Assembly (NCBI GenBank): GCA_034722055.1
Contig: JAYENL010000128.1
Span: forward strand, 21,928-36,085
Length of the DNA: 14,158 bases
Source: Armatimonadota bacterium
GTDB lineage: Bacteria; Armatimonadota; Zipacnadia; Zipacnadales; UBA5352
Direction: 5' to 3'
Numbering within the stretch: position 1 is the first letter of the stretch; every line of letters begins with the position of its first letter. Shown here piece by piece: positions 273-14,158 of this stretch. A program made the position numbers and the translations under genes. The notes beneath the pieces were generated by a model. That model had not been told where the DNA came from. It did no database searches and saw only the letters and a program-made list of their open reading frames with translations.

Positions 273-1904
273 ATGAGCGAAGTGACGGCGCCGGATTACG
301 ACCACTGGTACACATACGATGAGCTGACGGAGTACCTGAGAAGAGCGGAGGCCGAGCACAGTGAGCTGTGCAGGCTGGAGTCGCTGGGCAAGACGCCGGA
401 GGGGCGGGACGTGTGGATGCTGGAGGTGACAGACCAGGCCGGCGGTGGGAGTGATAAGCGGCCTGGGTTCCTGGTGCACGCCAACATCCATGCGAAGGAG
501 CTGGCGGGGACGACCTCGTCGCTGCAGCTCGTACACGAGCTGGTCAATGGAACGGGCGAAGAGATCGACACCGGCGAGCTGCTGAGGGAGGTGGTGTTCT
601 ACATCATCCCTCGACTGAACCCGGACGGTGCGGAGTTCGCTCTGACCACCGGCGGCGAGATACGCAGCCGCATTGAGGAGCGCCGGGAGCCGAACTGCCT
701 GTATCAGGCGGACGTGGACAGGGACGGCGCCATCCTTGACATGCGGATTGAGCGCCCCGATGGGGACATGAAGGTCTCAGAGGAGGACGAGCGGGTGCTG
801 GTGCCGCGCGAGCCGGGGGATGAGGAGGGGCCGTTCTACCGGGTCTATCCCGAGGGGCTGATCGCCGAGTGGGACGGCGGGGAGTTCCGGTGGTGCGCGC
901 GGTCGCATGACTTCAATCGCAACTGGCCGGCCAACTGGCACCAGGAGCACGAGCAGGGCGGGGCGGGTGACTACCCGTTCTCGGAGCCAGAGATGCGGGC
1001 GCTGGCGGACTTCGTGTACTCGCACCCCAACATCTTCGGTGTGGTGGGCTTTCACTGCGGGTCGAGCGCGGTACTGATGCCACCGAGCACGGGCGCGCTG
1101 GAGGACATGAACGCCGCGGATCGGAAGGTCTTCGAGCGGCTGGGCGGTCGGGCGGCGGAGCTGACGGGGCTGACGCTGCTTCCGACGATCGACTACCGTT
1201 CTGCGGATCAGCCGCCGATTGCGCTGAAGGGGCACTCCGCGGACTGGGGCTACGAGCACATGGGGCTCTTCCACTTCGAGATCGAGCAGGGGAACGTCTA
1301 CAACGCGGCCGGGGTGACGACGGAGGACTTCTTCGCAGCCGCCTCAGATCAGCGGCACGTGTTCCTGCACGACGCGATTCGCTACCACGACGAGCATCCG
1401 GACCAGGAGATGTTCGTAGACTGGCACGAGTTCGACCATCCGCAGCTCGGGCGCGTCGAGATCGGGGGGTGGAAGAAGCACTGGATGATCAACCCCTCGT
1501 TCGCGGAGCTGAGGGAGCGGATAGCGCCGGGATCGGCGCGCTTCATGATTGAGTATGCGGCACAGCATCCGCGGATGGTGATCTCGGACGCGTGTGCCGA
1601 GGCGGTCGGTGACGGGATATACCGGGTGCGGGCGCGGGTGATGAATGACGGGGACCTCGCGACGAACATCTCCGAGCTCGGCAAGGTGCTGCGATCGCTG
1701 GAGCCGGTGACGGTGGAGCTGGTGGCAGGTGATGGCGTGGAGGTGCTGTCGCGGGGGGAGCACCACGAGATCGGACAGTTGGCAGCTCACCAGCGATCAG
1801 GAGAGCTGGAGTGGTTCGTGCGGGCGCCCGCGGGCAAGGAGATCGCGATTCGGGCACAGGCGCAGAAGGGCGGCGTGGCAGAGAGGACACTGAGCCTGGA
1901 GTGA
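273..1904 (+). CDS. M14 family zinc carboxypeptidase (543 aa)
   Basis: N-terminal 'WYTYDEL...LESLGKTPEGRDVW', zinc motif HAKE (HxxE), NPDG, DFNRNW, PFSEPE, third zinc ligand in GFHCG, candidate catalytic Glu in HFEIE. GGAGG lies upstream of the ATG. Confidence 0.92.
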   Translation: MSEVTAPDYDHWYTYDELTEYLRRAEAEHSELCRLESLGKTPEGRDVWMLEVTDQAGGGSDKRPGFLVHANIHAKELAGTTSSLQLVHELVNGTGEEIDTGELLREVVFYIIPRLNPDGAEFALTTGGEIRSRIEERREPNCLYQADVDRDGAILDMRIERPDGDMKVSEEDERVLVPREPGDEEGPFYRVYPEGLIAEWDGGEFRWCARSHDFNRNWPANWHQEHEQGGAGDYPFSEPEMRALADFVYSHPNIFGVVGFHCGSSAVLMPPSTGALEDMNAADRKVFERLGGRAAELTGLTLLPTIDYRSADQPPIALKGHSADWGYEHMGLFHFEIEQGNVYNAAGVTTEDFFAAASDQRHVFLHDAIRYHDEHPDQEMFVDWHEFDHPQLGRVEIGGWKKHWMINPSFAELRERIAPGSARFMIEYAAQHPRMVISDACAEAVGDGIYRVRARVMNDGDLATNISELGKVLRSLEPVTVELVAGDGVEVLSRGEHHEIGQLAAHQRSGELEWFVRAPAGKEIAIRAQAQKGGVAERTLSLE

Positions 1905-2129: not shown

Positions 2130-3152
2130 TCAGGGAATGCCGGTGGAGGAGGCGAGATCCTCGACGGCAGCGAGGACCATGGCCGGGGTGACCTCGAGCA
2201 TGCAGCGGCGGTGATCGCAGCGCTGATGGGGGCGGCAGGGCCGGCAGGGCAGATCGTCGATGTAGATGCTCCGGGCCAGAGGACCCTTGGGGCCGTTGCG
2301 GATGGGGCTGGGCCCGATGATGCACACGACGGGCGTGCCGACGGCGTAGGCCATGTGCGTGAGGCCGCTGTCGCCGCCGATGACGAGATCGGCGCGCTGG
2401 AGCAGAGCGGCCGCCTCCCTGACGGAGGTGCGGCCGGCGAATACGATGGGCGGACGGGCCATGCGGCCGGCGAGGGCCCGGGCGCGGTCACGTTCGCGCT
2501 CGGTGCCCGGGATGATGATGCGGGCGCCGAGGCGGCTGGTGAGGCTGTCAGCGAGCTCGATGAAGTACTGCTCGGGCCACTCACGGCGAGGCTCTGCCGA
2601 GAAGGGGATCATGACGACAACCGGACGGTGATCGGCGAGGGTCTGCTCCTCCCAGAGCCGATCGACGGGCCCGAAGTCATCCTCAGTGAGGAAGAGCTCA
2701 GGGACGAAGTCGTCGCGGGAGACTCCGAGGGCCTGGCACTGTTCAAGGTAGCGCTGAGAGATGTACTGCTGGTCCCAGCGCTCCGGGGAGAGCTCGTTGT
2801 AGGCGAAGAGGGCGGCCTCTCGGGCCTCCTGCTTGCCGATGCGGCGGGGCGCGCCGCTGGCCCAGGTGGCGATGGCGCTCTTGAGGAGGCACTGGAGGTC
2901 GATGGTGATGGTGAAGTCGCGAGCCTTCAGTTGCCGCCAGGCCATGACGATCTCGACAAGGGTGGGACGCATGGGAATGTCGAGAGTCTCGTCGATGTGA
3001 GGATTGTGCTCGAGAAGGGGGGCGAAGGGACGCTGGACCAGCCAGGTGAGGTGACAGTCGGGCATGGCGGCCTTGAGGCCGCGGGCGACGGGGGTGCTCT
3101 GAACGACGTCACCCATGGCGGACATTCGGACGATCAGGATTCTCTCCGACAC
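2130..3152 (-). CDS. Glycosyltransferase family 9 (WaaC/WaaF-like heptosyltransferase), 340 aa
   Basis: 'RILIVRMSAMGDVVQSTP', 'IDLQCLLKSA', 'REWP', 'GGDSGLTHMAYAVGTPVV', C-terminal CRPC. Start placed at GTG 3152 with GGAGG 7 nt upstream. The 754-aa ORF-track call is an antisense over-extension. Confidence 0.92.
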   Translation of the reverse strand: MSERILIVRMSAMGDVVQSTPVARGLKAAMPDCHLTWLVQRPFAPLLEHNPHIDETLDIPMRPTLVEIVMAWRQLKARDFTITIDLQCLLKSAIATWASGAPRRIGKQEAREAALFAYNELSPERWDQQYISQRYLEQCQALGVSRDDFVPELFLTEDDFGPVDRLWEEQTLADHRPVVVMIPFSAEPRREWPEQYFIELADSLTSRLGARIIIPGTERERDRARALAGRMARPPIVFAGRTSVREAAALLQRADLVIGGDSGLTHMAYAVGTPVVCIIGPSPIRNGPKGPLARSIYIDDLPCRPCRPHQRCDHRRCMLEVTPAMVLAAVEDLASSTGIP

Positions 3153-3191
3153 TTCCGCGCCTCCGTGGCGTGAGCGGGAGATGCCGAGGCG

Positions 3192-4331
3192 GTGAAGATG
3201 GCCGAGCCGTATCGATACGACTGCAGGCTCTTCACGGGCTACAAGCCGTGCCCGTATGACTGCGAGTGCGCCGACTGCGAGCACTACGAGCCGATGGGGC
3301 CGCAGGTGCTGGTGGTAAGAGTGCATCAACTGGGGAACATCGTCAAGTCTACTCCCGTTGTGCATGCGCTGCGAAAGCGGTTCGATGATCCGTGGATCGC
3401 ATGGCTGAGCAGCAGCGCTGCGGCGCCGCTGCTGGAGACGAATCCGCTGGTGGACGAGGTGATCGAGTACTCGTGGGAGGCCGTGCCGCTGCTGGCGGCG
3501 CGGCATTTCGATCTGGTGGTGAGCCTGGAGGCGGATGCGGCGGAGGCGGCGCTGGCGCAGGAGGTGCCCGCTGAGGAGCACCTGGGGTACGGAGTCCACG
3601 AGAGCGGGCGTCTGCGTCCGCTGGGCGAGGCGTCGCTGGGGTACTTCTCGCTGAGCGTCTCGGACCGTGTCAGGTTCGAGGAGAATACGAAGACGCTTGC
3701 GGAGCTGTGCTTTGACCTCGTGGGTGTGCCCTACGAGGGTGAGGAGTACATCCTGCGCGTGACCGATGCGGAGCTGGCGCACGCGCGGGGTGTGCTGGAA
3801 GAGCTGGGAGTGGAGCCGCCGACGGAGACGGTGATCGCGCTGGCGACCGGGGGGGACACGGCGCGGTTCGAGACGAAGGATTGGCCGCCGCAGCGGTTCG
3901 CCGAGCTGGCGCGTCTGCTGGAAGGGCGCACAGGGGCGCGGCTGCTGCTGGTGGGGGGACCGGCGGAGCGGGAGACGAACCGGGGGCTGGCCTCGGAGCT
4001 TGGAGAGACGGTGCTGGACACGGGGTGCGGACACAGCATCCGGGAGTTCTGTGCGCTGCTGTCGCTCTGCGACCTGGTGGTCAGCGCGGATGCTTTTCCA
4101 CTGCACGCGGCAGTGGCGATGGGGACGCCGGTGGTGGGGGTATTCGGGCCGACGCCGCCGGCGGAGGTGGCGATCTTCGGGCGCGGGCGGAAGGTCGTGA
4201 CGGAGATGACGTGCGGGCCGTGCTACATCCGCACGCGGGCGGAGTGTCCGCACGAAGGGGCGTGCATGCCGGGGATCTCGGCCGAGCGGGTGGCCGAGGC
4301 GGTGGTAGAGGTGCTGGAGGAGGGCGAATGA
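3192..4331 (+). CDS. Glycosyltransferase family 9 with Cys-rich N-terminal extension
   Basis: 'VLVVRVHQLGNIVKSTP', 'LLETNPLVDEVI', 'KDWP', 'ADAFPLHAAVAMGTPVVGVFGPT', 'CGPCY...CPHEGACM'. Start is GTG 3192 or ATG 3198. Confidence 0.9.
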   Translation: MKMAEPYRYDCRLFTGYKPCPYDCECADCEHYEPMGPQVLVVRVHQLGNIVKSTPVVHALRKRFDDPWIAWLSSSAAAPLLETNPLVDEVIEYSWEAVPLLAARHFDLVVSLEADAAEAALAQEVPAEEHLGYGVHESGRLRPLGEASLGYFSLSVSDRVRFEENTKTLAELCFDLVGVPYEGEEYILRVTDAELAHARGVLEELGVEPPTETVIALATGGDTARFETKDWPPQRFAELARLLEGRTGARLLLVGGPAERETNRGLASELGETVLDTGCGHSIREFCALLSLCDLVVSADAFPLHAAVAMGTPVVGVFGPTPPAEVAIFGRGRKVVTEMTCGPCYIRTRAECPHEGACMPGISAERVAEAVVEVLEEGE

Positions 4332-4441
4332 GGTGGGCAAGGCAGGTGTGCGGGGCCGAGCCGGGAAGCCGAGGAATGCACGGAGCAAGAGCAAATCGGA
4401 TCCGCCGCGGAGGCGCGGCGGGCGCTGAAGGAGGCCGGCGG

Positions 4442-5233
4442 ATGAAGCTGGGGCTGCTGACCTACAACATGGCGGCGGAGTGGGACCTGGACACGCTGCT
4501 GGAGAAGTGCGTGCTGCTGGGCTTTGAGGGAGTGGAATTCCGAACCGATCGCGACCACGCCCATGGCGTTGAGGTGGAGATGACGGGGGCGCAGCGGAAG
4601 GCGGTCCGCGAGAAGTGCGAGACGGCGGGTGTGGCGATCGCGGGTCTGAGCAGTGGGTGCGCCTTTGATTCGATGGACCGAGATGAGCTGGAGGCGAACA
4701 TCGAGCGAACGCGCAAGCACCTGGACCTGTGTGCGGACCTCGGCACAGGTGGAGTGAAGGTCTATGGAAACAGACTGCACGTGGACGACGGCGTGCCGGC
4801 CGAGGACACGATCGCGCAGATCGGGGAGGCGCTGGCAGGGCTGTCCGAGTACGCCGCGGGGCAGGGCGTGCAGGTGAGATTCGAGATGCACGGCGACTTC
4901 ACGACTCCGGACGTGTGCAATCGCCTGATGGAGCTGGCGGGGGACGGTGAGGGCATATGCCTGATCTACAACTGCAACAACGCCTACGACGTGGACGAGG
5001 AGGGCTCGATAGAGGGATCGTACAGGGCGGCGGCAGAGCGCGTGGGGCACGCGCACGTCCACGACCTGGCGGATCCGGACTTCCCCTACCTGGAGCTTCT
5101 GGGACTGCTTCACGAGGATGGGTATGAGGGGTGGTGCAGCGCGGAGCTGCAGGACAGCCCGGATCGGGAACGGGTGCTGCGATTCTACGTGGAGCTGTGG
5201 CACGCCTACCTGAGGATCGTGGGAGCGGAGTAG
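4442..5233 (+). CDS. Sugar phosphate isomerase/epimerase family (xylose-isomerase-like TIM barrel), 263 aa
   Basis: 'MKLGLLTYN', 'GFEGVEFR', 'FEMHGD', 'HAHVHD', 'GYEGWCSAE'. GAAGGAGG precedes ATG 4442. The upstream extension to 3881 overlaps the previous gene and is spurious. Confidence 0.88.
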   Translation: MKLGLLTYNMAAEWDLDTLLEKCVLLGFEGVEFRTDRDHAHGVEVEMTGAQRKAVREKCETAGVAIAGLSSGCAFDSMDRDELEANIERTRKHLDLCADLGTGGVKVYGNRLHVDDGVPAEDTIAQIGEALAGLSEYAAGQGVQVRFEMHGDFTTPDVCNRLMELAGDGEGICLIYNCNNAYDVDEEGSIEGSYRAAAERVGHAHVHDLADPDFPYLELLGLLHEDGYEGWCSAELQDSPDRERVLRFYVELWHAYLRIVGAE

Positions 5234-5308
5234 GGCTGCCGTCACTGCAGGCATGCCAAAGGCCGCGCCGGGAAAAAGGCGTGGCCTTTGGCATGTACTG
5301 GACGGCAG
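5230..5308 (+). repeat. Long imperfect hairpin starting with GTAG at the stop codon (expanded REP-like / mRNA 3' structure)
   Basis: GTAG (5230-5233), then CTGCCGTC(5236-5243)/GACGGCAG(5301-5308) enclosing CATGCCAAAGGCC-GCGCC / GGCGT-GGCCTTTGGCATG (5252-5295). Confidence 0.7.
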
Positions 5309-5318
5309 GTATGTATCA

Positions 5319-5465
5319 GGTACAAGCTGCAAGCAACAAGCTGCAAGCAACAAGCTGCAAGCTGCAAGCTGCAAGCTACAAGCAACAAGCTACAAGGTGC
5401 AAGCAACAAGCTGGGAGCTGCAAGCGACGAGCGACGAGCTACGAGCGGCGAGCTACGAGCGGCGA
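5319..5465. repeat. Heptanucleotide tandem array, 21 units
   Basis: Units GCTGCAA/GCAACAA/GCTACAA grading into GCGACGA/GCTACGA/GCGGCGA, in uninterrupted 7-nt phase. Confidence 0.95.
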
Positions 5466-5483
5466 GGTAACGACTGACGGCGA

Positions 5484-5594
5484 GGGCAGCGTCGATGGGC
5501 CGGGGCGGAATCTTCGGCCTCTTCGCTGCGCTGAGAGGCCTCACCGGGCGCTGCCCGCCCGGCGGCCCCTCCACCCAACTCCGGCGCATCTTCA
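5484..5594. repeat. Dispersed structured repeat, copy A
   Basis: Core 5497-5575 aligns ungapped to 7369-7447 at 71/79 nt (hand count). Outer stem GGGCCG/CGGCCC followed by CTCCAC (GTGGAG on minus). Confidence 0.9.
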
Positions 5595-5708: not shown

Positions 5709-7181
5709 TCAGCCGACGAGACCGGTCCGCCGGAGGGCGAGGCGGCCGTCGGTGCCGCGAATCCAGCGGACGTGGGTGGGCGTCTGAGTGTCCGCTGAGC
5801 GGGGAGCCCAGATTGCCACGCCGGGACTGTGCGGGCCAGCGCCCCTGAACTTGGCGACGAGCCAGAAGGAGCGGGACGCTCCGGCAGGCCGCTGATCAGC
5901 CCCGAGGTCCATGTCGGCGGGGACGACCACGAAGACCGCCGGGGAGCGCGGCGCGGCCTCAACCTCGTCAAGCAGGGCGCAGCGATGGGCGGTGGGGGCG
6001 AGTATGACGTCCCAGGCAGGGCCGCGCGTGGCGAGGGCGGCATGAAGTGCGACGGCGGCGTAGACGCGTGAGTGACGGCGGAGGGGCAGGTCCGACCGCA
6101 GCTCGCGACGCCAACTGCGAGGGCTGCGTGCAAGGGCAATGTCATCGTGGAGGGCGGGGTGAACGACGACTGTGCTGCGGTCGGGCAGGTTGTCGGCCAA
6201 CCACTGGGAGGCGACGGCGGCCGGCGTGGGCGCCGGAGAGCGAGGCGCGGGCGGGCCATCGGCTGCACCTGCGGCGAAGACCAGTGCGGCGCTAAGCAGG
6301 GCCGCCGACCAGGCATTGGCCGGGAGGGCGTCCCGGAGATATCGCAAAAGATAGACCATGGCGCCACAGAGGGCAGCGGCCAGCAGCAGCGGGACGAGAG
6401 CGGCAGAGGCCTGCCGGGCGAGGGCGGTAGGCTCAGGCGGGATGACGACCGCGGCACCGATGAGGAAGGACACGAGCGCGAGAGCGCCGGCAGGCACGGC
6501 CGGAAAGCTGCCCCGGGCGAGAGCCTCGTGCACGATCAGTGCAACGGCGCCCACGAGGGCAAGAGCCGCGACGAGAGGGAGGGCGTCCGTTGCAAAGCCC
6601 AACGACAGACCGAGGGCGATGGCGACGACCCCGGGGTGCCGCTGCTCGCGCCTCCACGGAAGTGCCACGAGCACACCCAGAAGGAGGAAGGTGAGGGCGA
6701 AGATGCCGGAGTCGAGGCGGTGACTGAGGGCGACGGCGGCCGGATGCAGCGCGACGGCGAAGGCACCCGCGACGCCAACCCAGTGATCGATGAGGCGGGT
6801 GCCGATGAGATAGACGAGAAGAACCGACAGCACTCCGGCGGCCACGGCCGCCGCGTGTGCGAGTGTGCAGAAGGCCGCGGGGTCGGTGAAGAAGCGGGCA
6901 CAGAAGTCGAGGGCCGTAAGGCCCGGCGAGATGAAGGCCTCGACCTGGTAGCGGGCGGCATAGATGAGAGCGAAGACCCAGGTGCCCAGTGCAGAGTCGG
7001 AGGATGGGGCGGGCGTGAGGCCGATGGCGGTGGCCAGTGCTTGGGGCTGCTGATGCAGGTCGAGTGAGGCATCATGACCGGCCTGAGGCCCGGCCCGGAG
7101 CACCGCAGCCAGCAGGCATGCAGCGATGAGGAAGATGATCGCGCCACGGTCGCGGGCGCGATGCGGTGCTTCCGCTCGCAT
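5709..7181 (-). CDS. Polytopic membrane protein, PMT/ArnT-like (GT-C fold) glycosyltransferase, 490 aa
   Basis: Many hydrophobic helices and the typical segment 'VLLVYLIGTRLIDHWVGVAGAFAVALHPAAVALSH'. Soluble C-terminal domain begins near 'ASQWLADNLP'. Confidence 0.7.
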   Translation of the reverse strand: MRAEAPHRARDRGAIIFLIAACLLAAVLRAGPQAGHDASLDLHQQPQALATAIGLTPAPSSDSALGTWVFALIYAARYQVEAFISPGLTALDFCARFFTDPAAFCTLAHAAAVAAGVLSVLLVYLIGTRLIDHWVGVAGAFAVALHPAAVALSHRLDSGIFALTFLLLGVLVALPWRREQRHPGVVAIALGLSLGFATDALPLVAALALVGAVALIVHEALARGSFPAVPAGALALVSFLIGAAVVIPPEPTALARQASAALVPLLLAAALCGAMVYLLRYLRDALPANAWSAALLSAALVFAAGAADGPPAPRSPAPTPAAVASQWLADNLPDRSTVVVHPALHDDIALARSPRSWRRELRSDLPLRRHSRVYAAVALHAALATRGPAWDVILAPTAHRCALLDEVEAAPRSPAVFVVVPADMDLGADQRPAGASRSFWLVAKFRGAGPHSPGVAIWAPRSADTQTPTHVRWIRGTDGRLALRRTGLVG

Positions 7182-7356
7182 GAGTCAGGAGTCTCCCAAT
7201 TACCTACGAGAAAGGACATCCAGCCAAGGATGGTGCGCAACGCTGGCGAGATGAGGATAGCAGGGAGGCCTTGAGGATCGCTCAAGGGAGACTCATGAAT
7301 CTCTCACGATTGGAGTACGACGCCTGGCGGTGGCGATGGAGTGACGTCGAGCTTCG

Positions 7357-7467
7357 GGGCAGCGTCCTGGGCCGGGGTGGAACCTTCGGCCCGTTCGCTG
7401 CGCTCACAGGCCTCACCGGGCGCTGTGCGCCCGGCGGCCCCTCCACCAAGCACGCCGCGTATCTTCA
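7357..7467. repeat. Dispersed structured repeat, copy B
   Basis: Direct repeat of 5484-5594. Internal hairpins GGGCCGGGG..CTTCGGCCC and CCGGGCGC-tgt-GCGCCCGG. Confidence 0.9.
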
Positions 7468-7678
7468 ACACAGGCGAGCCGTGGAGCGGCCTTCTCGTCA
7501 ACATGCGCGGAGTTGCACAAGTCACCACTAGCACATGATTGCGCTCCGGTACCTACATTAATGGAGGGGGCCGATGCAGAGTCGCCCTCCGGAGCTGGCG
7601 AGATGTGAGACGGAGGACAGATCATCGACCGCTCATGACAGGACCCGAAGGCAGTCTCCTGACGGAAGGAGGCGGTCG

Positions 7679-9166
7679 ATGTCAGGGGAGATGCAGGAGT
7701 GGGAGGAGCAGCCTGCACCGGTGCGCCGTTTCGTGTTGGATGCGGAGTACCTGGGACTGGAGGCTGAGGTGTATCCGGCGATCGTGGATGTGCTGGAGGA
7801 GGTCTTCGAGGGCGGATACACGGAGGCGGCGCTGTGCTGGGGGATCGGAGCGGGGAAGTCCTACGCCGCGAGTCTGGCGATCGCTTACCAGCTCCACAGG
7901 GCGCTGTGTCTGCGGGAGCCGCAGCGGCATTTCGGGCTCGGTGAGGGGAGCATGATCAGCTTCCTGAACATGTCCACGAATGCCGACCAGGCGCGGCGTG
8001 TGGTGTTCGGCGAGATACTACGGCGCATCGAGCGCTCGCCGTGGTTCGAGAAGCACACGCCGAAGGTGATGAGCCGGGAGCTGCGCTTCCCGAAGGACAT
8101 AGTGGTGATCTGCGGCAACTCGGCAGAGACGTATCCGCTGGGCTACAACATACTGGGCGCGGTTATCGACGAGGCGAGCTGGTTGCTGGAGACGGCGGGT
8201 GGGCGACGGGACTCGGCGGAGGAGATATACAACGCATTGCAGCGGCGGATTCGGAGCCGGTTCCTGGACCGGGGCCTGCTGGTCATGATCTCCTCGCCGC
8301 GGCACCGGGGGGACTTCCTGGAGCGGAAGCTGGAGGAGGCGAAAGAGAATCCGAGGATCTACGCGTCGCGGAAGGCGACCTGGGAGCTGAAGCCGGAGGA
8401 CGCCTACTGTGGCGAGAGGTTTGAGTGCGAGGGGCTGATGGTGCCGGTGGAGTATCGGCCGGAGTTCAGGCGCAACAAGCTCCGGGCGCTGCGCGACCTG
8501 GCGGCGCGGCCAGCGGAGGCCTTCGAGCCGTTCATCCGGGACGCGACGGTCCTGGAGCGAGCCATCGATGACAGCATCCCTGAAGCGTTTGACGACCGCG
8601 GGCGGCTGCTGCCGGAGTACCGAACGGAAGACCGGCAGCCGCGATTCGTGCACGTTGACCTGGGGCTGAGCCGGGACGCGTGCGGGATCGCAATGGCGCA
8701 CTGCGAGCCATGCCCGGAAGGTGGGGACGGGCCGGTGGTCATCGTGGACCTGATGCGGCGGATCGAGCCACCAGAAGGAGGGGAGCTGCAGTTCGCCGGG
8801 GTTCGGGAGCTGATCCTGACCCTGGCCGACAGGGGCTTCCGGATCGAGCAGGTGAGCTTCGACGGCTACGAAAGCGCGGACAGCAGGCAGATCCTGAAGC
8901 GGAGGGGCCTGAAGGTCAAGCTGGTGTCAGTGGACCGCAGCGTTGAGGCCTACGAGACCCTGAAGGAGCTGCTCAATGAGGGTCGGCTGCGATGGTACCG
9001 CTACGAGCCTGTGCTGCAGGAGTGCAAGGGCCTGGAGCTGGTGCAGGGGCGGAAGGTGGATCACAGGCAGGGGGGATCGAAGGACGTCGCTGACGCGGTG
9101 GCCGGCGCAGTGAGCGAGGCGGTGAACCGCTGGCAGGGCGGGGAGATGCGGGCGGTGATCGTGTGA
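7679..9166 (+). CDS. Phage terminase large subunit (495 aa; alternative start 7574)
   Basis: Walker A 'WGIGAGKS', motif 'NMSTNADQA', Walker B 'GAVIDEAS', coupling region 'MISSP', RNase H-like nuclease acidic residues in 'HVDLG', 'SFDGY', 'KVDH..GSKDVADA'. AAGGAGG 6 nt before ATG 7679. Confidence 0.9.
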   Translation: MSGEMQEWEEQPAPVRRFVLDAEYLGLEAEVYPAIVDVLEEVFEGGYTEAALCWGIGAGKSYAASLAIAYQLHRALCLREPQRHFGLGEGSMISFLNMSTNADQARRVVFGEILRRIERSPWFEKHTPKVMSRELRFPKDIVVICGNSAETYPLGYNILGAVIDEASWLLETAGGRRDSAEEIYNALQRRIRSRFLDRGLLVMISSPRHRGDFLERKLEEAKENPRIYASRKATWELKPEDAYCGERFECEGLMVPVEYRPEFRRNKLRALRDLAARPAEAFEPFIRDATVLERAIDDSIPEAFDDRGRLLPEYRTEDRQPRFVHVDLGLSRDACGIAMAHCEPCPEGGDGPVVIVDLMRRIEPPEGGELQFAGVRELILTLADRGFRIEQVSFDGYESADSRQILKRRGLKVKLVSVDRSVEAYETLKELLNEGRLRWYRYEPVLQECKGLELVQGRKVDHRQGGSKDVADAVAGAVSEAVNRWQGGEMRAVIV

Positions 9167-9191
9167 CGGAAACGGTAGGCAGCGGCAGGAC

Positions 9192-9325
9192 GCGCGGGCG
9201 AGGGCGCCCGCGCCCCAGTAGTTACTTCAGGGCAATGCGGGGGCGAGGGCGCCCGGTGACGCCTGTGAGTGCAGCCAACCGGTGAGACCGGAGGTCTGCC
9301 AAGGTTCCATGCCGGTCCAGGACGC
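9192..9325 (-). repeat. REP-like hairpin plus an inverted, insertion-bearing copy of the A/B repeat
   Basis: GCGCGGGCG-aggg-CGCCCGCGC (9192-9213). The reverse complement of 9249-9325 reads GCGTCCTGGACCGGCATGGAACCTT...GCTGCACTCACAGGCGTCACCGGGCGC, matching copy B. Confidence 0.8.
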
Positions 9326-9341
9326 ATCTGTGCCCAGAGCG

Positions 9342-9419
9342 AAACGGCGTGCAGGCGGGGGCGCCTGCACTACTTAACGGGTGGGGCAGGCGGGGCGCGT
9401 GCACTACTTAACGGGTAGG
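9342..9419 (-). repeat. Tandem pair of GTAG-footed REP-like units ending in CTACTTAACGG
   Basis: GTGCAGGCG-gggg-CGCCTGCAC-TACTTAACGGGT (9349-9382), a degenerate duplicate at 9386-9419, and a third copy at 11671-11709. Confidence 0.8.
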
Positions 9420-9492
9420 TGGGACGCACCCAGTTGGCGATCACTCGGGGCGCTGAGGGTAGCGCCTCGCTTTCATTTGCGGAGGTGGTGCC

Positions 9493-10728
9493 ATGCAGGA
9501 CGAGCTGATGAATGCTCACATCGTGGGGGCAGAGCCCCAGCGGGGCAAGAGCCAGCAGCTCCCCGAGGAGAGCTGGCGGGAGTCCTACGACAGCGGCGAG
9601 GTGAAGGAACCGCCCTACTCGCTGACGGCACTGGCGGAGCTATACGAGATGAACTCCACCCACAAGGCCTGTGTCGATGCGAAGACGACGAACATCGTGG
9701 GCCTGGGATACCGGTTTGTGGCGGTGCGTTCAGGCGCGAGTGAGGAGGAGCGGGGCCGGCTGGAGCACCTCTTCGGGTCATGCAACCCGCAGATGACCTT
9801 CACTGAGGTCATGCGGGCGGTGTGGACCGATGTGGAGACCGTGGGCAACGGGTACCTGGAGATCACCCGGAACTCGGAGGGAGAGATCGACGGGTTCTAT
9901 CACGTCCCAGCGACGACGGTGCGGGTGAGGAGCGACCGGAGCGGGTTCGTACAGATTCGGGATGGGCGGAAGCAGCGATTCCGGGCGCTGGGATCGGAAC
10001 CGCGCATCGATGACGAGACCGGGCAGGCGGAGAACGAGATTCTGCACGTGCGGAAGTACACGCCGCAATCGACCTACTACGGGATTCCGGACATCCTGCC
10101 GGCGGTGAGCGCGGTGGCGGGGGACCGTGCGGCGGCGGAGTACAACGTGAGCTTTTTCGAGCACAACGCGGTGCCGCGGATGGCGGTGATCGTGGAGGGC
10201 GGACCGGCCTCGAAGGAGCTGCTGCAACAGGTGCGGCGCTTCATGGAGACCGAGATCAAGGGGCAGGCCCACAAGACTCTGATACTGGAAGTGCCTGGTG
10301 GGGACACGAAGGTGCGGCTGGAGCGTCTGGGTCAGGTGGATGGCGACGACGCGGGGTTCCTGGACTACCGGAGGGCGAACCGGGATGAGATCCTGATGGT
10401 GCACCGCGTCCCTCCGAGCAAAATCACGATCGTGGAGAACGCGAACCTGGCGAACAGCCGGGACCAGGACAAGACCTTCCGCGAGCAGGTTGTGCGGCCC
10501 GAGCAGCGGCGGGTGGAGTTCCAGATGAACCGGATGATCCGGGAGCAGATGGGGATCGAGGACTGGGAGTTCCGCTTCCGGGAGATGGATTTGAGCGAGG
10601 AGCTGCAGCAGGCGGAGATCGCGAAGATCTACGTGGACATCGGGGTGTGGACGGCTGACGAGGTACGCGCAAGGCAGGGCCTGCAGCCGCTGGCTGAGAG
10701 GGATCGGAGCGACGAGCCAAGCGAGTGA
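9493..10728 (+). CDS. Phage portal protein, PBSX-family-like (411 aa)
   Basis: 'EPPYSLTALAELYEMNSTHKACVDAK..NIVGLG', 'GNGYLEITRN', 'YYGIPD', 'YNVSFFEHNAVP', 'ILMVHRVPP', 'TADEVR'. GGAGGTG RBS. Confidence 0.93.
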   Translation: MQDELMNAHIVGAEPQRGKSQQLPEESWRESYDSGEVKEPPYSLTALAELYEMNSTHKACVDAKTTNIVGLGYRFVAVRSGASEEERGRLEHLFGSCNPQMTFTEVMRAVWTDVETVGNGYLEITRNSEGEIDGFYHVPATTVRVRSDRSGFVQIRDGRKQRFRALGSEPRIDDETGQAENEILHVRKYTPQSTYYGIPDILPAVSAVAGDRAAAEYNVSFFEHNAVPRMAVIVEGGPASKELLQQVRRFMETEIKGQAHKTLILEVPGGDTKVRLERLGQVDGDDAGFLDYRRANRDEILMVHRVPPSKITIVENANLANSRDQDKTFREQVVRPEQRRVEFQMNRMIREQMGIEDWEFRFREMDLSEELQQAEIAKIYVDIGVWTADEVRARQGLQPLAERDRSDEPSE

Positions 10729-10763
10729 TGAGAGAGCGGAGCGGAGATGACGGAGGTGATCCG

Positions 10764-11615
10764 ATGGCCGTACCTGAGGGACCTGGAAGCTTTGCGGTGA
10801 CGATGCCGCTGGCGAAGGTGTGGGAGGACGAGGACGGCGAGATGCGGTTCGAGGGAGTGGCGTCCTCGACGAGCCTCGATCGCCAGCAGGAACGGATGAC
10901 ACGAAACGCGATCAGGAAGATGACCGAGCAGACCGGCCTGGATGTGTTGCCATCGCACAGTGCCGGCCCGCTGGAAGAGCTGGGCCTGGTGGAGGAGGCG
11001 TGGGCCGACAACGACCAGTTTCGAGTGGCAGGTCGGCTGGACAAGACCAATCCGCGGTCGCGACGGCTCTTCGAGAAGGTGCTTGGCGGTCGGCGCTACG
11101 GGCTGAGCGTCGGGGGACGGGTGACGAAGGCGTTCTGGCGCTACGACGAGGAGGTCGGCAAGCAGATCCGATTCATCGATGACGTGAAGCTGGACCACGT
11201 AGCGGTGTGCCGGCCGGACGCGGCAGCGAACCCGGACACGTATCTGTCGGTGCTGGCGAAGGCCGCGGAGGGGATCATGGACGGTCCGCCGGACACGCGA
11301 GATGAGGAAGCGGTGCTGACGCGTATCGGACGTGCGGCGGTGGAGGCCACACGAGCGCTGTGGCCGTTCGCGAGAACGGATGACGATGACGGTGAGGTGA
11401 AGCCCGGGCCGGTGAGCCTGGAGGAAGAGCTCGCGGAGCTGACGGAGCTGCGCAAGAGCGTGGAGGACGCCCTCGAAGAGCTTGAGAGCGCCCTGACGGA
11501 GCTGCGGAAGGCTGACGAGGAGCACAATGAGATGCCGTCGCGCGAGGGGCGTTCGATGGCGCTGCCCGGACAGGAGGCGCCGGAGAAGGGCGGCATGTGG
11601 AGGGACGTGATCTAG
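10764..11615 (+). CDS. Prohead (maturation) protease with C-terminal coiled-coil/scaffold region (283 aa; alternative start 10725)
   Basis: 'FEGVASSTSLDRQQE', His in 'LPSHS', Ser in 'GLSVGG', 'LDHVAV...AANPDT' typical of HK97-type prohead proteases. Heptad-rich acidic C-terminus. GGAGGTGA before ATG 10764. Confidence 0.85.
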   Translation: MAVPEGPGSFAVTMPLAKVWEDEDGEMRFEGVASSTSLDRQQERMTRNAIRKMTEQTGLDVLPSHSAGPLEELGLVEEAWADNDQFRVAGRLDKTNPRSRRLFEKVLGGRRYGLSVGGRVTKAFWRYDEEVGKQIRFIDDVKLDHVAVCRPDAAANPDTYLSVLAKAAEGIMDGPPDTRDEEAVLTRIGRAAVEATRALWPFARTDDDDGEVKPGPVSLEEELAELTELRKSVEDALEELESALTELRKADEEHNEMPSREGRSMALPGQEAPEKGGMWRDVI

Positions 11616-11643
11616 GACCGGAGTTGATGATCGGGATGGTGTT

Positions 11644-12195
11644 GGGCCGAAGGTTCCATCCCGGCCCGGTAAAGGGCGCGCAGGCGGGGGGGGCGTGCGC
11701 TACTTAACGAATGGGCCGGGGGTGGAACCTGGGAGGTCCTTCGCTAGGCTTCGGACCTCCCACCGCTCGCCAGGCTCGCGGCGGCCCCTCCAGGGTGGTT
11801 CCTCCATGATGGCGGGACGGCAGCCACAGTGACGCTGCATGATACGCGAGTTTCCGCCAGGGAGCACTATGTCACGCTTGCAGCACGATGCCGTCGCCGC
11901 CGGCACCGGGGAGCCCGTGCGGCACCGGCCGGGCCGGAAACGGAGGTATCGACCGAACGCCTTCAAACGGCGGGCCGGACAGTGGTCCGGCCCCTCCATA
12001 CGGCACCTGTCCCCGGATGGGTCGAGCTTTCAGCCCGACGGGGCCTCGCGCCTTCCGCGCAGGTAGGCCCTCCAGCCCCGGCAATGACCGGGCGGGAGCT
12101 GGGTGCTTGGCTGGCTGGAGGGTGTGTGGCGGCCCCTCCATGTTGGCCCGATAGCAGCCATAGTGAGGCTGCACAGTGCGCGAGCTTGTGCCACT
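11644..12195. repeat. Cluster of REP-like hairpins filling the protease-capsid spacer
   Basis: Inverted 24-mer of copy B (11644-11667, 23/24), CTACTTAACG unit (11671-11709), expanded unit (11713-11792), minimal unit (11972-11998), 39-bp direct repeat 11801-11839/12135-12173, inverted repeat CCCTCCAGCC/GGCTGGAGGG (12068-12122). Confidence 0.8.
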
Positions 12196-12320
12196 GAGCA
12201 GCAGTACTTAGCGGGGGGCAGGAGCGCGCCATGCTGTGGTTGACGGCAAAGGAGAGGTGAGATGAGAGAGCAGACCGAGGTGGGCGCGATCACAGGCGTG
12301 AGGCGAAGGGAGTGCTGGTT

Positions 12321-13262
12321 TTGGGTCAGGAGGAGATGCTGCAAAAGGCAATCGACACCACGGACCTGGCCGGCGGCGGGCTGCTGTCCACGGGGCAGGC
12401 GGAGCGCTTCGTGGACCTGTCGCTGGACCAGTCGGTGATGCTCAGGGACGCTCGGGTGGTACGGATGCGCAGCGCGGTAATGGAGCTTGACAAGATCGCG
12501 ACCAGCGGTCGGGTCAGCCAGCTCCGGACCGAAGGGGTGGCACCGGCGTCGCTGAGCGAGCCGAGCTTCTCGAAGGTGACGCTGACCGCGGTGGACATCA
12601 TCACCCCGTTCGAGATCACGATGGAGGCGCTGGAGGACAGCATCGAGCGCGGGGACCTGGAGGACACCGTGATCCGGGTGATGGCGCGTCAGACGGCGAC
12701 GGACCTGGAGGAGCTGGCGATTCAGGGGGACACGGGGTCGGCGGACGAGTTCCTGCAGGGCCTGGACGGCTGGCGAGTGCTGTCCAACGACGGTCATCTG
12801 GTGGACTTCCTGGGTGCGACGTTGGACAAGTCCGGGCTGGCGTCGATGTACAAGGCGCTGCCGAACCGCTACAAGCGGAATCAGGGGGAACTGAGGTTCT
12901 ATTTCGCGCCAGCGGCGGTTCAGGACTGGCACGATACGTTCAGTGACCGGGCCAGCGCGCTGGGGGACGAGGCGCTGACGAGCGCGGCAGCGCCTCCGTA
13001 CATGGGCGTGCCGGTGGTCTCGGTGCCGAACATCCCGACGGATCAGGAGGGCGTGGAGGGGTACTCGGGGTCGGATCTGACCTACGGGTTCCTGACGCCC
13101 CGTGAGAACCTGGTGTTCGGGATTCACCGTGACATCCGGATCGACAAGGACCGCGACATCCTGCGGGGCGTGAACATCTACACGATCACGACTCGGGTGG
13201 CGGTGGAGTTCGAGGAGGACGACGCGGTGGTCGTAGCGGTGAACGTGGCGAAGAGCGCGTAG
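12321..13262 (+). CDS. Major capsid protein, PBSX XkdG-like (HK97 fold), about 313 aa
   Basis: 'QEEMLQKAIDTTDLAGGGLL..QAERF', 'LEDSIE', 'DLEELAIQGDT', 'LDGW', 'LPNRY', 'RFY', 'NLVFGIHRDIRI', 'FEEDDAVV' match my recollection of B. subtilis XkdG along its length. Start placed at TTG 12321 after AAGGGAGTG (alternatives 12312, 12336). Confidence 0.92.
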   Translation: MGQEEMLQKAIDTTDLAGGGLLSTGQAERFVDLSLDQSVMLRDARVVRMRSAVMELDKIATSGRVSQLRTEGVAPASLSEPSFSKVTLTAVDIITPFEITMEALEDSIERGDLEDTVIRVMARQTATDLEELAIQGDTGSADEFLQGLDGWRVLSNDGHLVDFLGATLDKSGLASMYKALPNRYKRNQGELRFYFAPAAVQDWHDTFSDRASALGDEALTSAAAPPYMGVPVVSVPNIPTDQEGVEGYSGSDLTYGFLTPRENLVFGIHRDIRIDKDRDILRGVNIYTITTRVAVEFEEDDAVVVAVNVAKSA

Positions 13263-13279
13263 GTGCGAGCCCAGAGGGA

Positions 13280-13309
13280 GCGGGGGCGGCCGGAGGAGGC
13301 CGCCCCCGC
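13280..13309 (+). terminator. Strong GC stem-loop after the capsid gene (attenuator / mRNA stabiliser; no U-tract)
   Basis: Perfect 12-bp stem GCGGGGGCGGCC-ggagga-GGCCGCCCCCGC, 17 nt after the stop codon. Confidence 0.55.
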
Positions 13310-13395
13310 AGTGTGACTCGGTGCCGTGAGCGCCGAGGGAAGATGGGCATTGAGGACGGAGACCTGGCGCAAGCGGCAGTCGGAGGTGTCAGCAA

Positions 13396-14158
13396 TTGGC
13401 TCGACCGCAGATGCTGTACGTGGGCAAGAAGGGGGCGGTGACGTATCCGGCAATCGGGAACGTGGAGACGGGTGCAGGAAGCAAGGGGACGCTGGCCTTC
13501 TGGTATCACCCGTCAGCGGAGGGACAGCACTGTCACGTGGTGGAGGTAACGGCTGATCCTGAGAACTGGCTGATAATCCGCCGAGACCAGACGGAGTGGG
13601 TGCTGCAGGCGTACAGCTCCGGGTCCCTGGCGATGGTGATTTCGACCTCGATTCCGGTGGCCTGGCGGCATGTGGTTGCCACGTGGGACTTCACGACGCC
13701 GGGTGACGGGGTGCTGCGATTGTATCTGGATGGCGAGGAGGTGCCGGAGTCGCCAGCGACGGGGGCGCCTGAGCTGCAGGGCCCGCCGGACACCATCTAC
13801 GTGGGGCCGGGCCCGGCGAACCCGTACGCCCTGGCGCATGGGTGCTACGACCAGCTTGCCATCTGGAATGACATCATGACGCCGGAGCAGGTGGCGGACC
13901 TGCACGACGCGGGGCGGGTGCACATTCCGGAGAGTGAGGATGGCTCCGGGGCGATGCTCTTCCGGGCCTCGTGGGATGAGCAGTATGACGCGGAGGTCGC
14001 GGAGGGAGACGGGACGGCAGGCTTCGAGGGAGCGGTGGACCAGTACTGCCGGCTGGACTGCGGCAGTCGGCACCGTGGGAAGCGGTTTGCCTACCGGATC
14101 GGCACGCCGAGGCACGACGGCAGCGAGGACGACCGGGTGCCACTGATGGCGGTGCTGC
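13396..14158 (+). CDS. LamG/concanavalin-like jelly-roll domain protein, 3' end outside the window (absent from the ORF track)
   Basis: Frame open from TTG 13396 (GGAGGTG 7 nt upstream) to the window end: MARPQMLYVGKKGAVTYPAIGNV...GTLAFWYHP...WRHVVATWD...VLRLYLDG...TIYVG...YDQLAIWNDIMTPEQVADL, the usual LamG-like signature. Confidence 0.85.
   Translation, partial: MARPQMLYVGKKGAVTYPAIGNVETGAGSKGTLAFWYHPSAEGQHCHVVEVTADPENWLIIRRDQTEWVLQAYSSGSLAMVISTSIPVAWRHVVATWDFTTPGDGVLRLYLDGEEVPESPATGAPELQGPPDTIYVGPGPANPYALAHGCYDQLAIWNDIMTPEQVADLHDAGRVHIPESEDGSGAMLFRASWDEQYDAEVAEGDGTAGFEGAVDQYCRLDCGSRHRGKRFAYRIGTPRHDGSEDDRVPLMAVL

Follow-up and report, generated by a model that had tools for sequence, protein, structure and literature searches.

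A putative domesticated siphovirus-like particle system, similar to gene transfer agents, in an order of uncultured Armatimonadota

The stretch of DNA studied here, a window of 14,158 nucleotides (C128:21928-36085), comes from the genome of an Armatimonadota bacterium (G000; 6.14 Mb in 330 contigs, 68% GC, 92.7% complete), and its right half opens a cluster of tailed-phage genes that begins with the gene of the large terminase, TerL. Our analyses suggest that this cluster is probably a resident, vertically inherited and domesticated siphovirus-like particle system, similar to gene transfer agents (GTAs), in an order of uncultured Armatimonadota. The whole cluster of about 22 kb lies among core genes, and the window carries its left third. 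As is characteristic of GTAs and viriforms, mobility genes are missing, the cluster has diversified together with its hosts, and its genes are under purifying selection; judged from the genomes compared, it appears to have been inherited under such selection since early in the history of the order, without means to replicate or move. An earlier interpretation of the window from its letters alone, here called the sequence-only reading, had seen in it a domesticated capsid module. The head genes are indeed present, but they belong to a full head–tail–lysis cluster, and the tail module lies on a second contig (C93), beyond the view of that reading.

Contig C128 continues for 1257 nt past the window and ends inside the gene of a large LamG protein, and its last ~147 nt are, by eye, identical to the first bases of C93 save one mismatch. 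With the cluster of a relative (G004) as tblastn query, every remaining cluster gene was found in C93:1-14329 (Table 1). The gene lists rest on tblastn and family matches where needed; the gene caller, which is based on the GC content of third codon positions (GC3), drops or fuses genes, for example at 2130-4394 and at C93:661-2025. Scans with Pfam, PHROG and NCBIfam models recovered the terminase, portal, protease and capsid open reading frames (ORFs) that had been recognized before, and GGAGG-type sites before TerL and portal, judged by eye, agree with the good ribosome-binding sites noted for them. TerL has no Pfam match; its Walker A motif (G55-S61), its Walker B motif (D164-E165) and the acidic nuclease residues D327, D395, D461 and D469 are invariant in 15/15 orthologues, and its identity is 70-75% within family f1, to which G000 belongs (73% to G004), and 49-58% between families. 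The portal protein is the sole PF04860 match in G000. The prohead protease has an orthologue in G022 that matches PF04586 (E 2.1e-5), and its C-terminal extension may be a scaffold. The capsid protein scores 32.7 bits with TIGR01554, above the cut-off of 27.5; its AlphaFold model, built from 16 close sequences, reached a predicted local distance difference test score (pLDDT) of 33, and PDB sequence searches with the capsid profile, TerL and the hub-like protein gave no match. A small terminase was not found as a conserved ORF in the cluster, the 497 nt in front of TerL share no nucleotide similarity with the corresponding spacers of relatives, and small ORFs near TerL in other families had no family match; the search for TerS families was not extended to the rest of the genome. 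Among the cluster genes, neither Pfam nor PHROG scans found sheath or baseplate families of contractile tails. With no sheath family, a PF18906 tube and a siphovirus gene order, the tail looks long and non-contractile, and a contractile tail of the PBSX type was rejected on these same grounds. Lysis genes, of which the sequence-only reading had none in view, do exist, as a holin and an amidase are encoded on C93. The lack of integrase, repressor and replication genes that it had noted within its view was borne out for the whole cluster: the scans of all cluster genes gave structural and lysis matches only, and the downstream contig held the tail genes with no integrase, att repeat, tRNA or replication gene being found.

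The order was represented by 61 genomes (G000 included) in seven families (f1-f7), which were searched with capsid, portal and hub as markers. The capsid gene is present in 32 of them, with 98% identity within a genus, 74-90% within a family and 61-76% between families, the latter comparable to the 63-69% of RpoB, and at least one of the three markers occurs in 46 (17/18 genomes of f1, 1/1 of f3, 14/14 of f4, 11/13 of f5 and 3/7 of f6, with 0/4 in both f2 and f7). The portal query added three genomes (G020, G046 and G055) to the capsid-based tally, and the hub gene was present at 73-75% identity in all five capsid-negative f1 genomes tested. Several of the apparent absences are in fact assembly gaps, and their cause can be seen: repeats similar to repetitive extragenic palindromic (REP) elements lie in the spacers and break contigs there; the G000 assembly itself breaks inside the cluster. 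The gene order—TerL, portal, protease, capsid, LamG, adaptor, two small genes, tube and onward—was kept in 20/20 loci fetched, and single-copy collinear orthologues, as one would expect of a vertically inherited system, were seen across five of the seven families. G005 yielded two portal matches (C751 and C381; 80% and 73% identity to the portal of the window), which point either to two copies or to two strains within the bin. To the right of the cluster lie rnpA, yidD, yidC and jag in G000, and a short K/R-rich ORF just upstream of rnpA was read, by eye, as rpmH. This rnpA-jag operon adjoins the end of the cluster in tandem orientation in f1 (G000, G008) and in convergent orientation in f6 (G022, G027), and is not found there in f4 or f5; that families with an RpoB identity of ~66% have this position in common speaks for a site that is old and fixed. 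Other flanks are an M6 peptidase besides jag-yidC in G022, a GHKL ATPase and Usp/M48 genes in G025, an M16 peptidase in G027, and an Fe-hydrogenase with a pilin-like gene in G040. Across the phylum, of which 401 genomes were sampled, only this order (25 genomes) gave strong capsid matches. Eight remote capsid matches outside the order (E 1e-11 to 1e-34) were considered as the same cluster and rejected: they come without LamG and hub genes, and with capsid identities of 24-42% and portal identities of 28-32% they are better assigned to other phage lineages.

The capsid tree, with 32 rows, recovers f1, f4 and f5 each as monophyletic, and likewise every genus with at least two rows except g5, which is not recovered because the capsid of G007 (genus g7) is identical to that of G010 (g5); both three-genome sub-clades inside genus g16 are recovered as well. 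Capsid and RpoB trees have 18 of 29 splits in common, whereas 1000 label shuffles gave 0.2 on average and never more than 3, and the Mantel correlation between capsid and RpoB (r 0.67) was reached in 0 of 2000 permutations; since kin share labels, these split and Mantel figures show clustering by lineage and do not count independent events. The conflicting splits are mostly short and weakly supported, apart from that of G007. A sharper test is synonymous divergence (dS): among 13 pairs that gave an estimate for both genes, the capsid value lies within a factor of two of the rpoB value in 10, for example 0.74 vs 0.72 for G000-G004, 0.57 vs 0.55 for G000-G005 and 0.50 vs 0.46 for G005-G010. The ratio of non-synonymous to synonymous divergence (dN/dS) ranges from 0.06 to 0.25 for 15/15 cluster genes compared between G025 and G039 (dS 0.7-1.8; TerL 0.11) and from 0.03 to 0.22 for the capsid over the 13 pairs that yielded estimates. 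Vertical inheritance, a capsid tree congruent with the host tree, and dN/dS well below 1 (0.03-0.25 overall), all of which follow from the sequence-only reading, were thus found, the first being evident from the collinear orthologues and the dS values as well as from the trees.

In its composition, the cluster resembles the host in GC (0.674 vs 0.690) and GC3 (0.871 vs 0.896), which supports the earlier impression of host-like codon usage, but its relative synonymous codon usage correlates with that of host genes at only 0.84, while random host gene sets reach at least 0.98. This low correlation arises because G-ending codons are favoured over C-ending ones, a strand skew that is common to the neighbouring host genes. 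The GC3 skew of the cluster is +0.28 (host mean -0.04, standard deviation 0.10), and host genes beside it have a skew of +0.19 to +0.43 on the plus strand and of -0.38 to -0.46 on the minus strand. C128:10001-37342 and C93:1-15000 hold the top 6 of 815 10-kb skew windows in G000 (+0.19 to +0.24; median absolute skew of the genome 0.03), the skew drops sharply to zero at the amidase/rnpA border, and a coding-strand skew of at least 0.156 was seen in 13 of 19 loci of relatives. In the parts consulted of the study by Koppenhöfer, Tomasch and Lang (PMC9836097), alphaproteobacterial GTA clusters are described as lying in regions of extreme GC skew that are rich in core genes and result from a choice of G over C in codons. 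That a distant phylum has this trait, too, suggests that GTA-like clusters and such chromosomal regions are linked in general, and the likeness opens a test of why GTA genes resemble core genes.

Several observations weigh against a system that has been inherited vertically and is still in use. All three markers are missing in 15 of the 61 genomes (f2 4/4, f7 4/4, f6 4/7, and G021, G059 and G002). In the RpoB tree, which was rooted with four other Armatimonadota and in which f7 is basal and the remaining 55 rows form one clade with 99% support, the cluster is present in 45 rows and absent in 13, and at least 7 changes are needed; this would mean one gain plus common losses, or unresolved assembly gaps. 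Three of the 13 pairs are exceptions with respect to dS (capsid vs rpoB 0.26 vs 0.09 for G045-G058, 0.32 vs 1.34 for G025-G045, and 0.008 vs 0.56 for G007-G010), which suggests some recent exchange or mis-binning. For the last pair, 8172 nt of L114 are 99.67% identical to a contig of G007 (L025), a genome with a contamination of 8%, so that the shared stretch is either a mis-binned contig or a very recent transfer. Some copies seem to be broken, as LamG of G008 lies in three frames (L016 9152-12373) and the capsid gene of G030 is frameshifted (C71:128120-129000), which may be decay or assembly error. In G025, a XerC/D-type tyrosine recombinase gene with few clear genes around it is found 3.8 kb upstream of TerL (L049:13488-14414). 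The GC skew follows the DNA strand and takes in host genes on both strands, and it is near zero (at most 0.076) in 6 of the 19 relatives' loci; it must therefore be regarded as a regional trait and is no proof of GTA function. Finally, no RNA run containing the region was among the public sequencing runs listed.

How might such particles work? Some host signal would switch the cluster on in a subpopulation of cells, in which portal, capsid protein and protease would assemble proheads. TerL would fill these by a headful mechanism, without a cluster-encoded small terminase, and since the cluster encodes none, the packaged DNA would most likely be host DNA. A long non-contractile tail and the LamG adhesins would then be added to the heads, holin and amidase would burst the cell, and the particles would deliver DNA to related cells or would only bind and kill them. 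Of these two functions, both proposed from the genes, we prefer DNA transfer to related cells. The second is the core of the main rival explanation, according to which the cluster is a PBSX-like defective prophage that has been kept as a killer particle, with interference competition being selected and no productive DNA delivery taking place. We regard this as unlikely, and still as the alternative to be taken most seriously. All evolutionary results fit it equally well as they fit a GTA. The head genes look PBSX-like: the best NCBIfam model of the portal protein is TIGR01540 (portal_PBSX), with 156.8 bits just below the cut-off of 166.05, the HK97 portal model scores lower, and both TIGR01540 and phrog_1623, the family of the capsid protein, also have matches in the control genomes of B. 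subtilis and E. coli. Because both match the B. subtilis control, the PBSX likeness proposed earlier is plausible for the head genes, with XkdG and XkdE as candidate counterparts; the likeness does not extend to the tail, which has no sheath family. The holin and amidase genes at the cluster end also agree with the rival, as the lysis genes of PBSX stand at the end of its late operon. Against a killer particle speak the missing sheath and baseplate families and the missing Xre-like repressor. Furthermore, an intact TerL, with its invariant motifs and low dN/dS, would be costly if the DNA content were irrelevant, although PBSX retains its terminase, too.

Far less probable is that the cluster is what remains of an old cryptic prophage, carried passively by the chromosome and without function for the host. 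The lack of integration and replication genes, the frameshifted copies in G008 and G030, and the genomes in which the cluster was not found would be in line with such a remnant, but about 19 genes have stayed intact and collinear in families as far apart as 63-67% RpoB identity, each of the 15 genes tested has low dN/dS at saturated dS, and the capsid is conserved between families like RpoB. Least probable of all is a functional temperate phage or satellite that co-speciates with its hosts, with integrase and replication genes that escaped detection or are located elsewhere: the complete structural and lysis modules, the nine contigs of this kind flagged as viral by detection pipelines, the near-identical cluster in G007 and G010 and the nearby recombinase of G025 would fit, but core host genes directly flank the cluster in five genomes with long contigs, recombinases are off the cluster contigs in G000 (22 tyrosine- and 4 serine-recombinase matches, none on C128 or C93) and G022 or more than 150 kb away from the cluster in G027 and G008, six loci around three clusters yielded no tRNA, the two cluster borders share no direct repeat of at least 10 nt, dS matches that of the host in most pairs, and the recombinase of G025 is of the Xer type, in a neighbourhood without counterpart in its congener G039. 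An integrated temperate prophage was accordingly rejected, as integrase, att repeats, repressor and replication module were not found and the only nearby recombinase was the Xer-like one. The same applies to satellites of the cf-PICI type, which have their own head genes, no tail genes, and integrase and replication genes: here, adaptor, tube, tape-measure-position and hub genes are present and an integrase was not found.

Among known particle systems, RcGTA (Rhodogtaviriformidae) is similar to the cluster in having TerL, a PF04860 portal, an S78/HK97 protease and an HK97 capsid in the same order and a siphovirus-like tail, in lacking integrase and replication genes, in its co-diversification with the host and purifying selection (sections consulted of PMC9662315), and in its position among core genes in a GC-skew peak that results from G-over-C codons (likewise PMC9836097 in part). 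The two differ in phylum and in what appears to be an independent origin, in the capsid, which is at most 35% identical to that of GenBank phages, and in the function, which is here predicted from the genes; further differences of the Armatimonadota cluster are its size of ~22 kb, the holin and amidase inside it, the ~1130-aa LamG protein between capsid and adaptor, the 1060-aa protein in the tape-measure position, and the small terminase that was not found. The lysis genes of RcGTA are located elsewhere. Beyond the generic portal, protease and capsid models, no NCBIfam model matched in the cluster, and as only generic HK97-type families match, the cluster is, on present gene content, not assigned to Rhodogtaviriformidae. 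PBSX is, like the cluster, a resident, non-replicating phage-like element of a whole host group, and its portal, just below the cut-off of TIGR01540, and its phrog_1623 capsid, a family that also matches the B. subtilis control genome, may be PBSX-like; unlike PBSX, the cluster has no sheath family, its host is a high-GC Armatimonadota bacterium, and no Xre-type repressor or sigma-factor gene was found beside it. BaGTA of Bartonella and BhGTA/VSH-1 of Brachyspira are, in the same sections of PMC9662315, particles of independently tamed tailed phages, each of which has diversified along with a single host clade and stands apart from sequenced phages, and in this they are similar to the cluster. 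However, the genes of BhGTA are without synteny between species, whereas the Armatimonadota cluster is strictly collinear, and BaGTA is coupled to run-off replication (PMC9662315, as far as consulted), whereas the contig depth is flat at the Armatimonadota cluster, which is weak evidence.

The nearest sequenced viruses are large Streptomyces siphoviruses (Coruscant, Wakanda) and some Vibrio phages, whose capsids are 33-35% identical over 83-84% of the length. Among 50,697 GenBank phage records, the best capsid match had 35.2% identity (Streptomyces phages), and all 227 matching records were below 60%, while copies of the cluster are 61-98% identical across the order. The Streptomyces and Vibrio phages differ further in being infectious, in their genomes of 120-134 kb and in their full replication machinery. 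All nine IMG/VR matches (9/9) are the same chromosomal cluster excised by a virus finder, and two of them keep the PMT_2-like host gene at the flank; virus-detection pipelines thus file chromosomal clusters as viral contigs. No description of the cluster was found in print, and the main text of the paper that names Zipacnadia is free of the six phage-related terms looked for (the supplements were outside this check).

Taken together, the data permit a more far-reaching interpretation of the GTA-like system, which we put forward tentatively and with somewhat less than even confidence. The cluster could be an independently domesticated GTA, and thus a new viriform family of 'Zipacnadia'-type Armatimonadota, that was acquired once after the split of the basal f7 and kept while the whole order radiated. 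Its heads would be filled with host DNA although no small terminase is dedicated to this task, and recipients would be recognized via a giant LamG lectin, whose glycan target would be shaped by the accompanying glycosyltransferases (upstream in f1, interleaved in f4). The GC skew of the cluster would be convergent with that of alphaproteobacterial GTAs. According to the sections consulted of PMC9662315, three independently domesticated GTA groups with an established genetic basis have been evaluated, all of them from cultured bacteria. A fourth lineage, if the interpretation is true, in an uncultured and globally distributed sediment clade would mean that the taming of whole tailed phages is commoner than the cultured record suggests, and the GC-skew signature could help to find GTAs in uncultured phyla. 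Such a lineage would also provide a defined set of genes, 22 kb in all, for expression and imaging.

The LamG protein, for which the lectin function is proposed, is probably a virion adhesin or fibre, as its models and matches suggest. Its gene follows the capsid gene in 18/18 loci reaching that far, and its dN/dS is 0.13. The structure model is a chain of all-beta domains (pLDDT 78.5), and an obvious hydrophobic signal segment was not seen by eye at the N-terminus. In a viral library, the model matches the folds of large LamG jelly-roll proteins from tailed phages, including Streptomyces phage Wakanda. Its fold matches in the PDB are sialidase lectin domains, laminin/neurexin LG domains and receptor-binding domains of clostridial neurotoxins, with 7-10% identity; they cover one jelly-roll domain only (TMq at most 0.15), and were therefore rejected as a functional lead and regarded as a generic fold likeness. 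The PDB sequence match is confined to the C-terminal Ig domain of a rhamnosidase, and the ESM Atlas matches all score below 0.9 and are LamG_3 carriers only. In G000, 200 bases in the middle of the LamG gene are read as N (C128, L002 ~16040-16240).

Table 1. Genes and spacers of the window and of the remainder of the cluster on contig C93 (window positions unless C93 is given).
Feature	Location	Strand	Match or remark
M14 carboxypeptidase	273-1904		host gene, left half of window
GT9 heptosyltransferase-like gene	2130-~3200	-	host gene, divergent from second GT9
GT9 heptosyltransferase-like gene	3192-4331	+	host gene
Xylose-isomerase-like TIM-barrel gene	~4481-5233		host gene
Putative multi-pass GT-C/PMT_2-like glycosyltransferase	5709-7181	-	divergent host neighbour of TerL
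497-nt spacer upstream of TerL, presumed promoter region	7182-7678		one 80-nt REP-like copy
Large terminase TerL, 495 aa	7679-9166	+	phrog_2 E 1.1e-16
TerL-portal spacer	9167-9492		filled by REP-like hairpins 9249-9282, 9357-9429
Portal protein, 411 aa	9493-10728	+	PF04860 E 1.6e-46; phrog_12 E 2.3e-67
Prohead protease, HK97/S78 type	10725-11615	+	phrog_80 E 2.3e-12; TIGR01543 E 1.5e-5
Protease-capsid spacer, 696 nt	11616-12311		REP-like copies 11644-11667, 11687-11725, 11761-11792; high-copy element ~11966-12006
Major capsid protein, HK97 family, 316 aa	12312-13262	+	phrog_1623 E 1e-82; PF05065 E 3.4e-9
N-terminal part of ~1130-aa LamG/ConA-like all-beta protein	13396-14158	+	PF13385 E 4.3e-16; continues past C128 end into C93
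LamG C-terminus	C93, first		
Head-tail adaptor	C93, after LamG		phrog_442 E 1e-24
Two neck or tail-completion genes, 173 and 228 aa	C93, after adaptor		no family match
Tail tube	C93		PF18906 E 4e-10
198-aa gene, chaperone position	C93, after tube		
1060-aa protein, tape-measure position	C93		named by position only
103-aa gene	C93, between tape-measure-position and hub-like genes		
Hub-like gene, 768 aa	C93		
239-aa gene, small Ig-like	C93, after hub-like gene		weak Ig match
114-aa gene	C93, before holin		
Holin	C93		phrog_6918 E 4e-5
Amidase_2 endolysin	C93, last cluster gene		E 1.6e-15

The spacers of the cluster contain a repeat family that is also found between host genes, as the sequence-only reading had stated: the 80-nt REP-like element at 7368-7447 recurs at 5496-5575 in a host spacer and has 103 blastn matches on 83 contigs of G000, with further copies, inverted or partial, at 9249-9282, 11644-11667 and 11761-11792. 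Protease and capsid genes abut in relatives, unlike in G000, where the 696-nt spacer separates them; the ORF at 11829-12197 inside this spacer had no family match. The region is contained, as contigs, in four public DNA runs (X1-X4) from one study. The contigs of all four break at the TerL-portal spacer, where the summed word depth is 183-581 in X1-X3 and 41 in X4, compared with 5-58 in neighbouring bins. In bin 11801-12272, the word depth is 197-2677 across the four runs, compared with 3-55 in the next bins, and many contigs end on either side of the 11966-12006 element. Contig joints fall at repeats with a shorter side of at most 31 letters, save four opposite-strand joints with sides of 32-42 at REP copies near 7363-7368 and 9328-9347. 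No contig of the four runs spans the cluster, and the joints speak neither for nor against excision. The REP-like repeats in the spacers point to long residence in the host, and so, as weak evidence, does the contig depth, which in three runs is the same for pieces of the cluster and of the host. As REP repeats break assemblies, presence and absence calls from metagenome-assembled genomes are unreliable for this cluster. Beside the REP-like copy at 5496-5575 and after the TIM-barrel gene, a tandem array of a 7-nt unit (CAAGCTG/CAAGCAA-like, with a 14-nt period) occupies 5290-5476.

The part of C128 that precedes the window holds core genes, among them those of aconitase and RNase E/G, rpsB, tsf, pyrH, frr and uppS. 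The gene next to TerL had been called a host glycosyltransferase at a distance of about 500 bp; the distance is right, with 497 nt between the TerL start and the start of the divergent gene, but that gene has only a weak, sub-cut-off PMT_2/GT-C-like match (PF13231 E 2.3e-4, 21.9 bits vs a cut-off of 26.1). It adjoins the cluster in most f1 genomes, with copies directly upstream of TerL in G004, G005, G007 and G014 (tblastn, 34-38% identity) and in the IMG/VR loci L105 and L111, and G008 lacks it. Beyond it come the TIM-barrel and GT9 genes in G004 and G005, and in G007 the GT9 genes without the TIM-barrel gene. That the host carries GT9 genes was correct, as two clear ones lie further left in the window. 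The f1 clusters have no glycosyltransferase inside; two GT9 genes and the PMT_2-like gene stand just upstream. In f4 clusters, a GT4 gene follows the portal gene, a GT9 gene follows the capsid gene, another GT9 gene lies near the end, and a GHKL ATPase gene is found upstream (L019/L038 in G025, L029/L041 in G039, L030 and L031); the identity of these genes in two congeners is 61-69%, and two of them, for which dN/dS was estimated, have values of 0.10-0.22. The two divergent GT9 genes of the window (2130-4394) have start points ~10 nt apart, and a 754-aa minus-strand open frame antisense to the plus-strand GT9 gene is a high-GC artefact.

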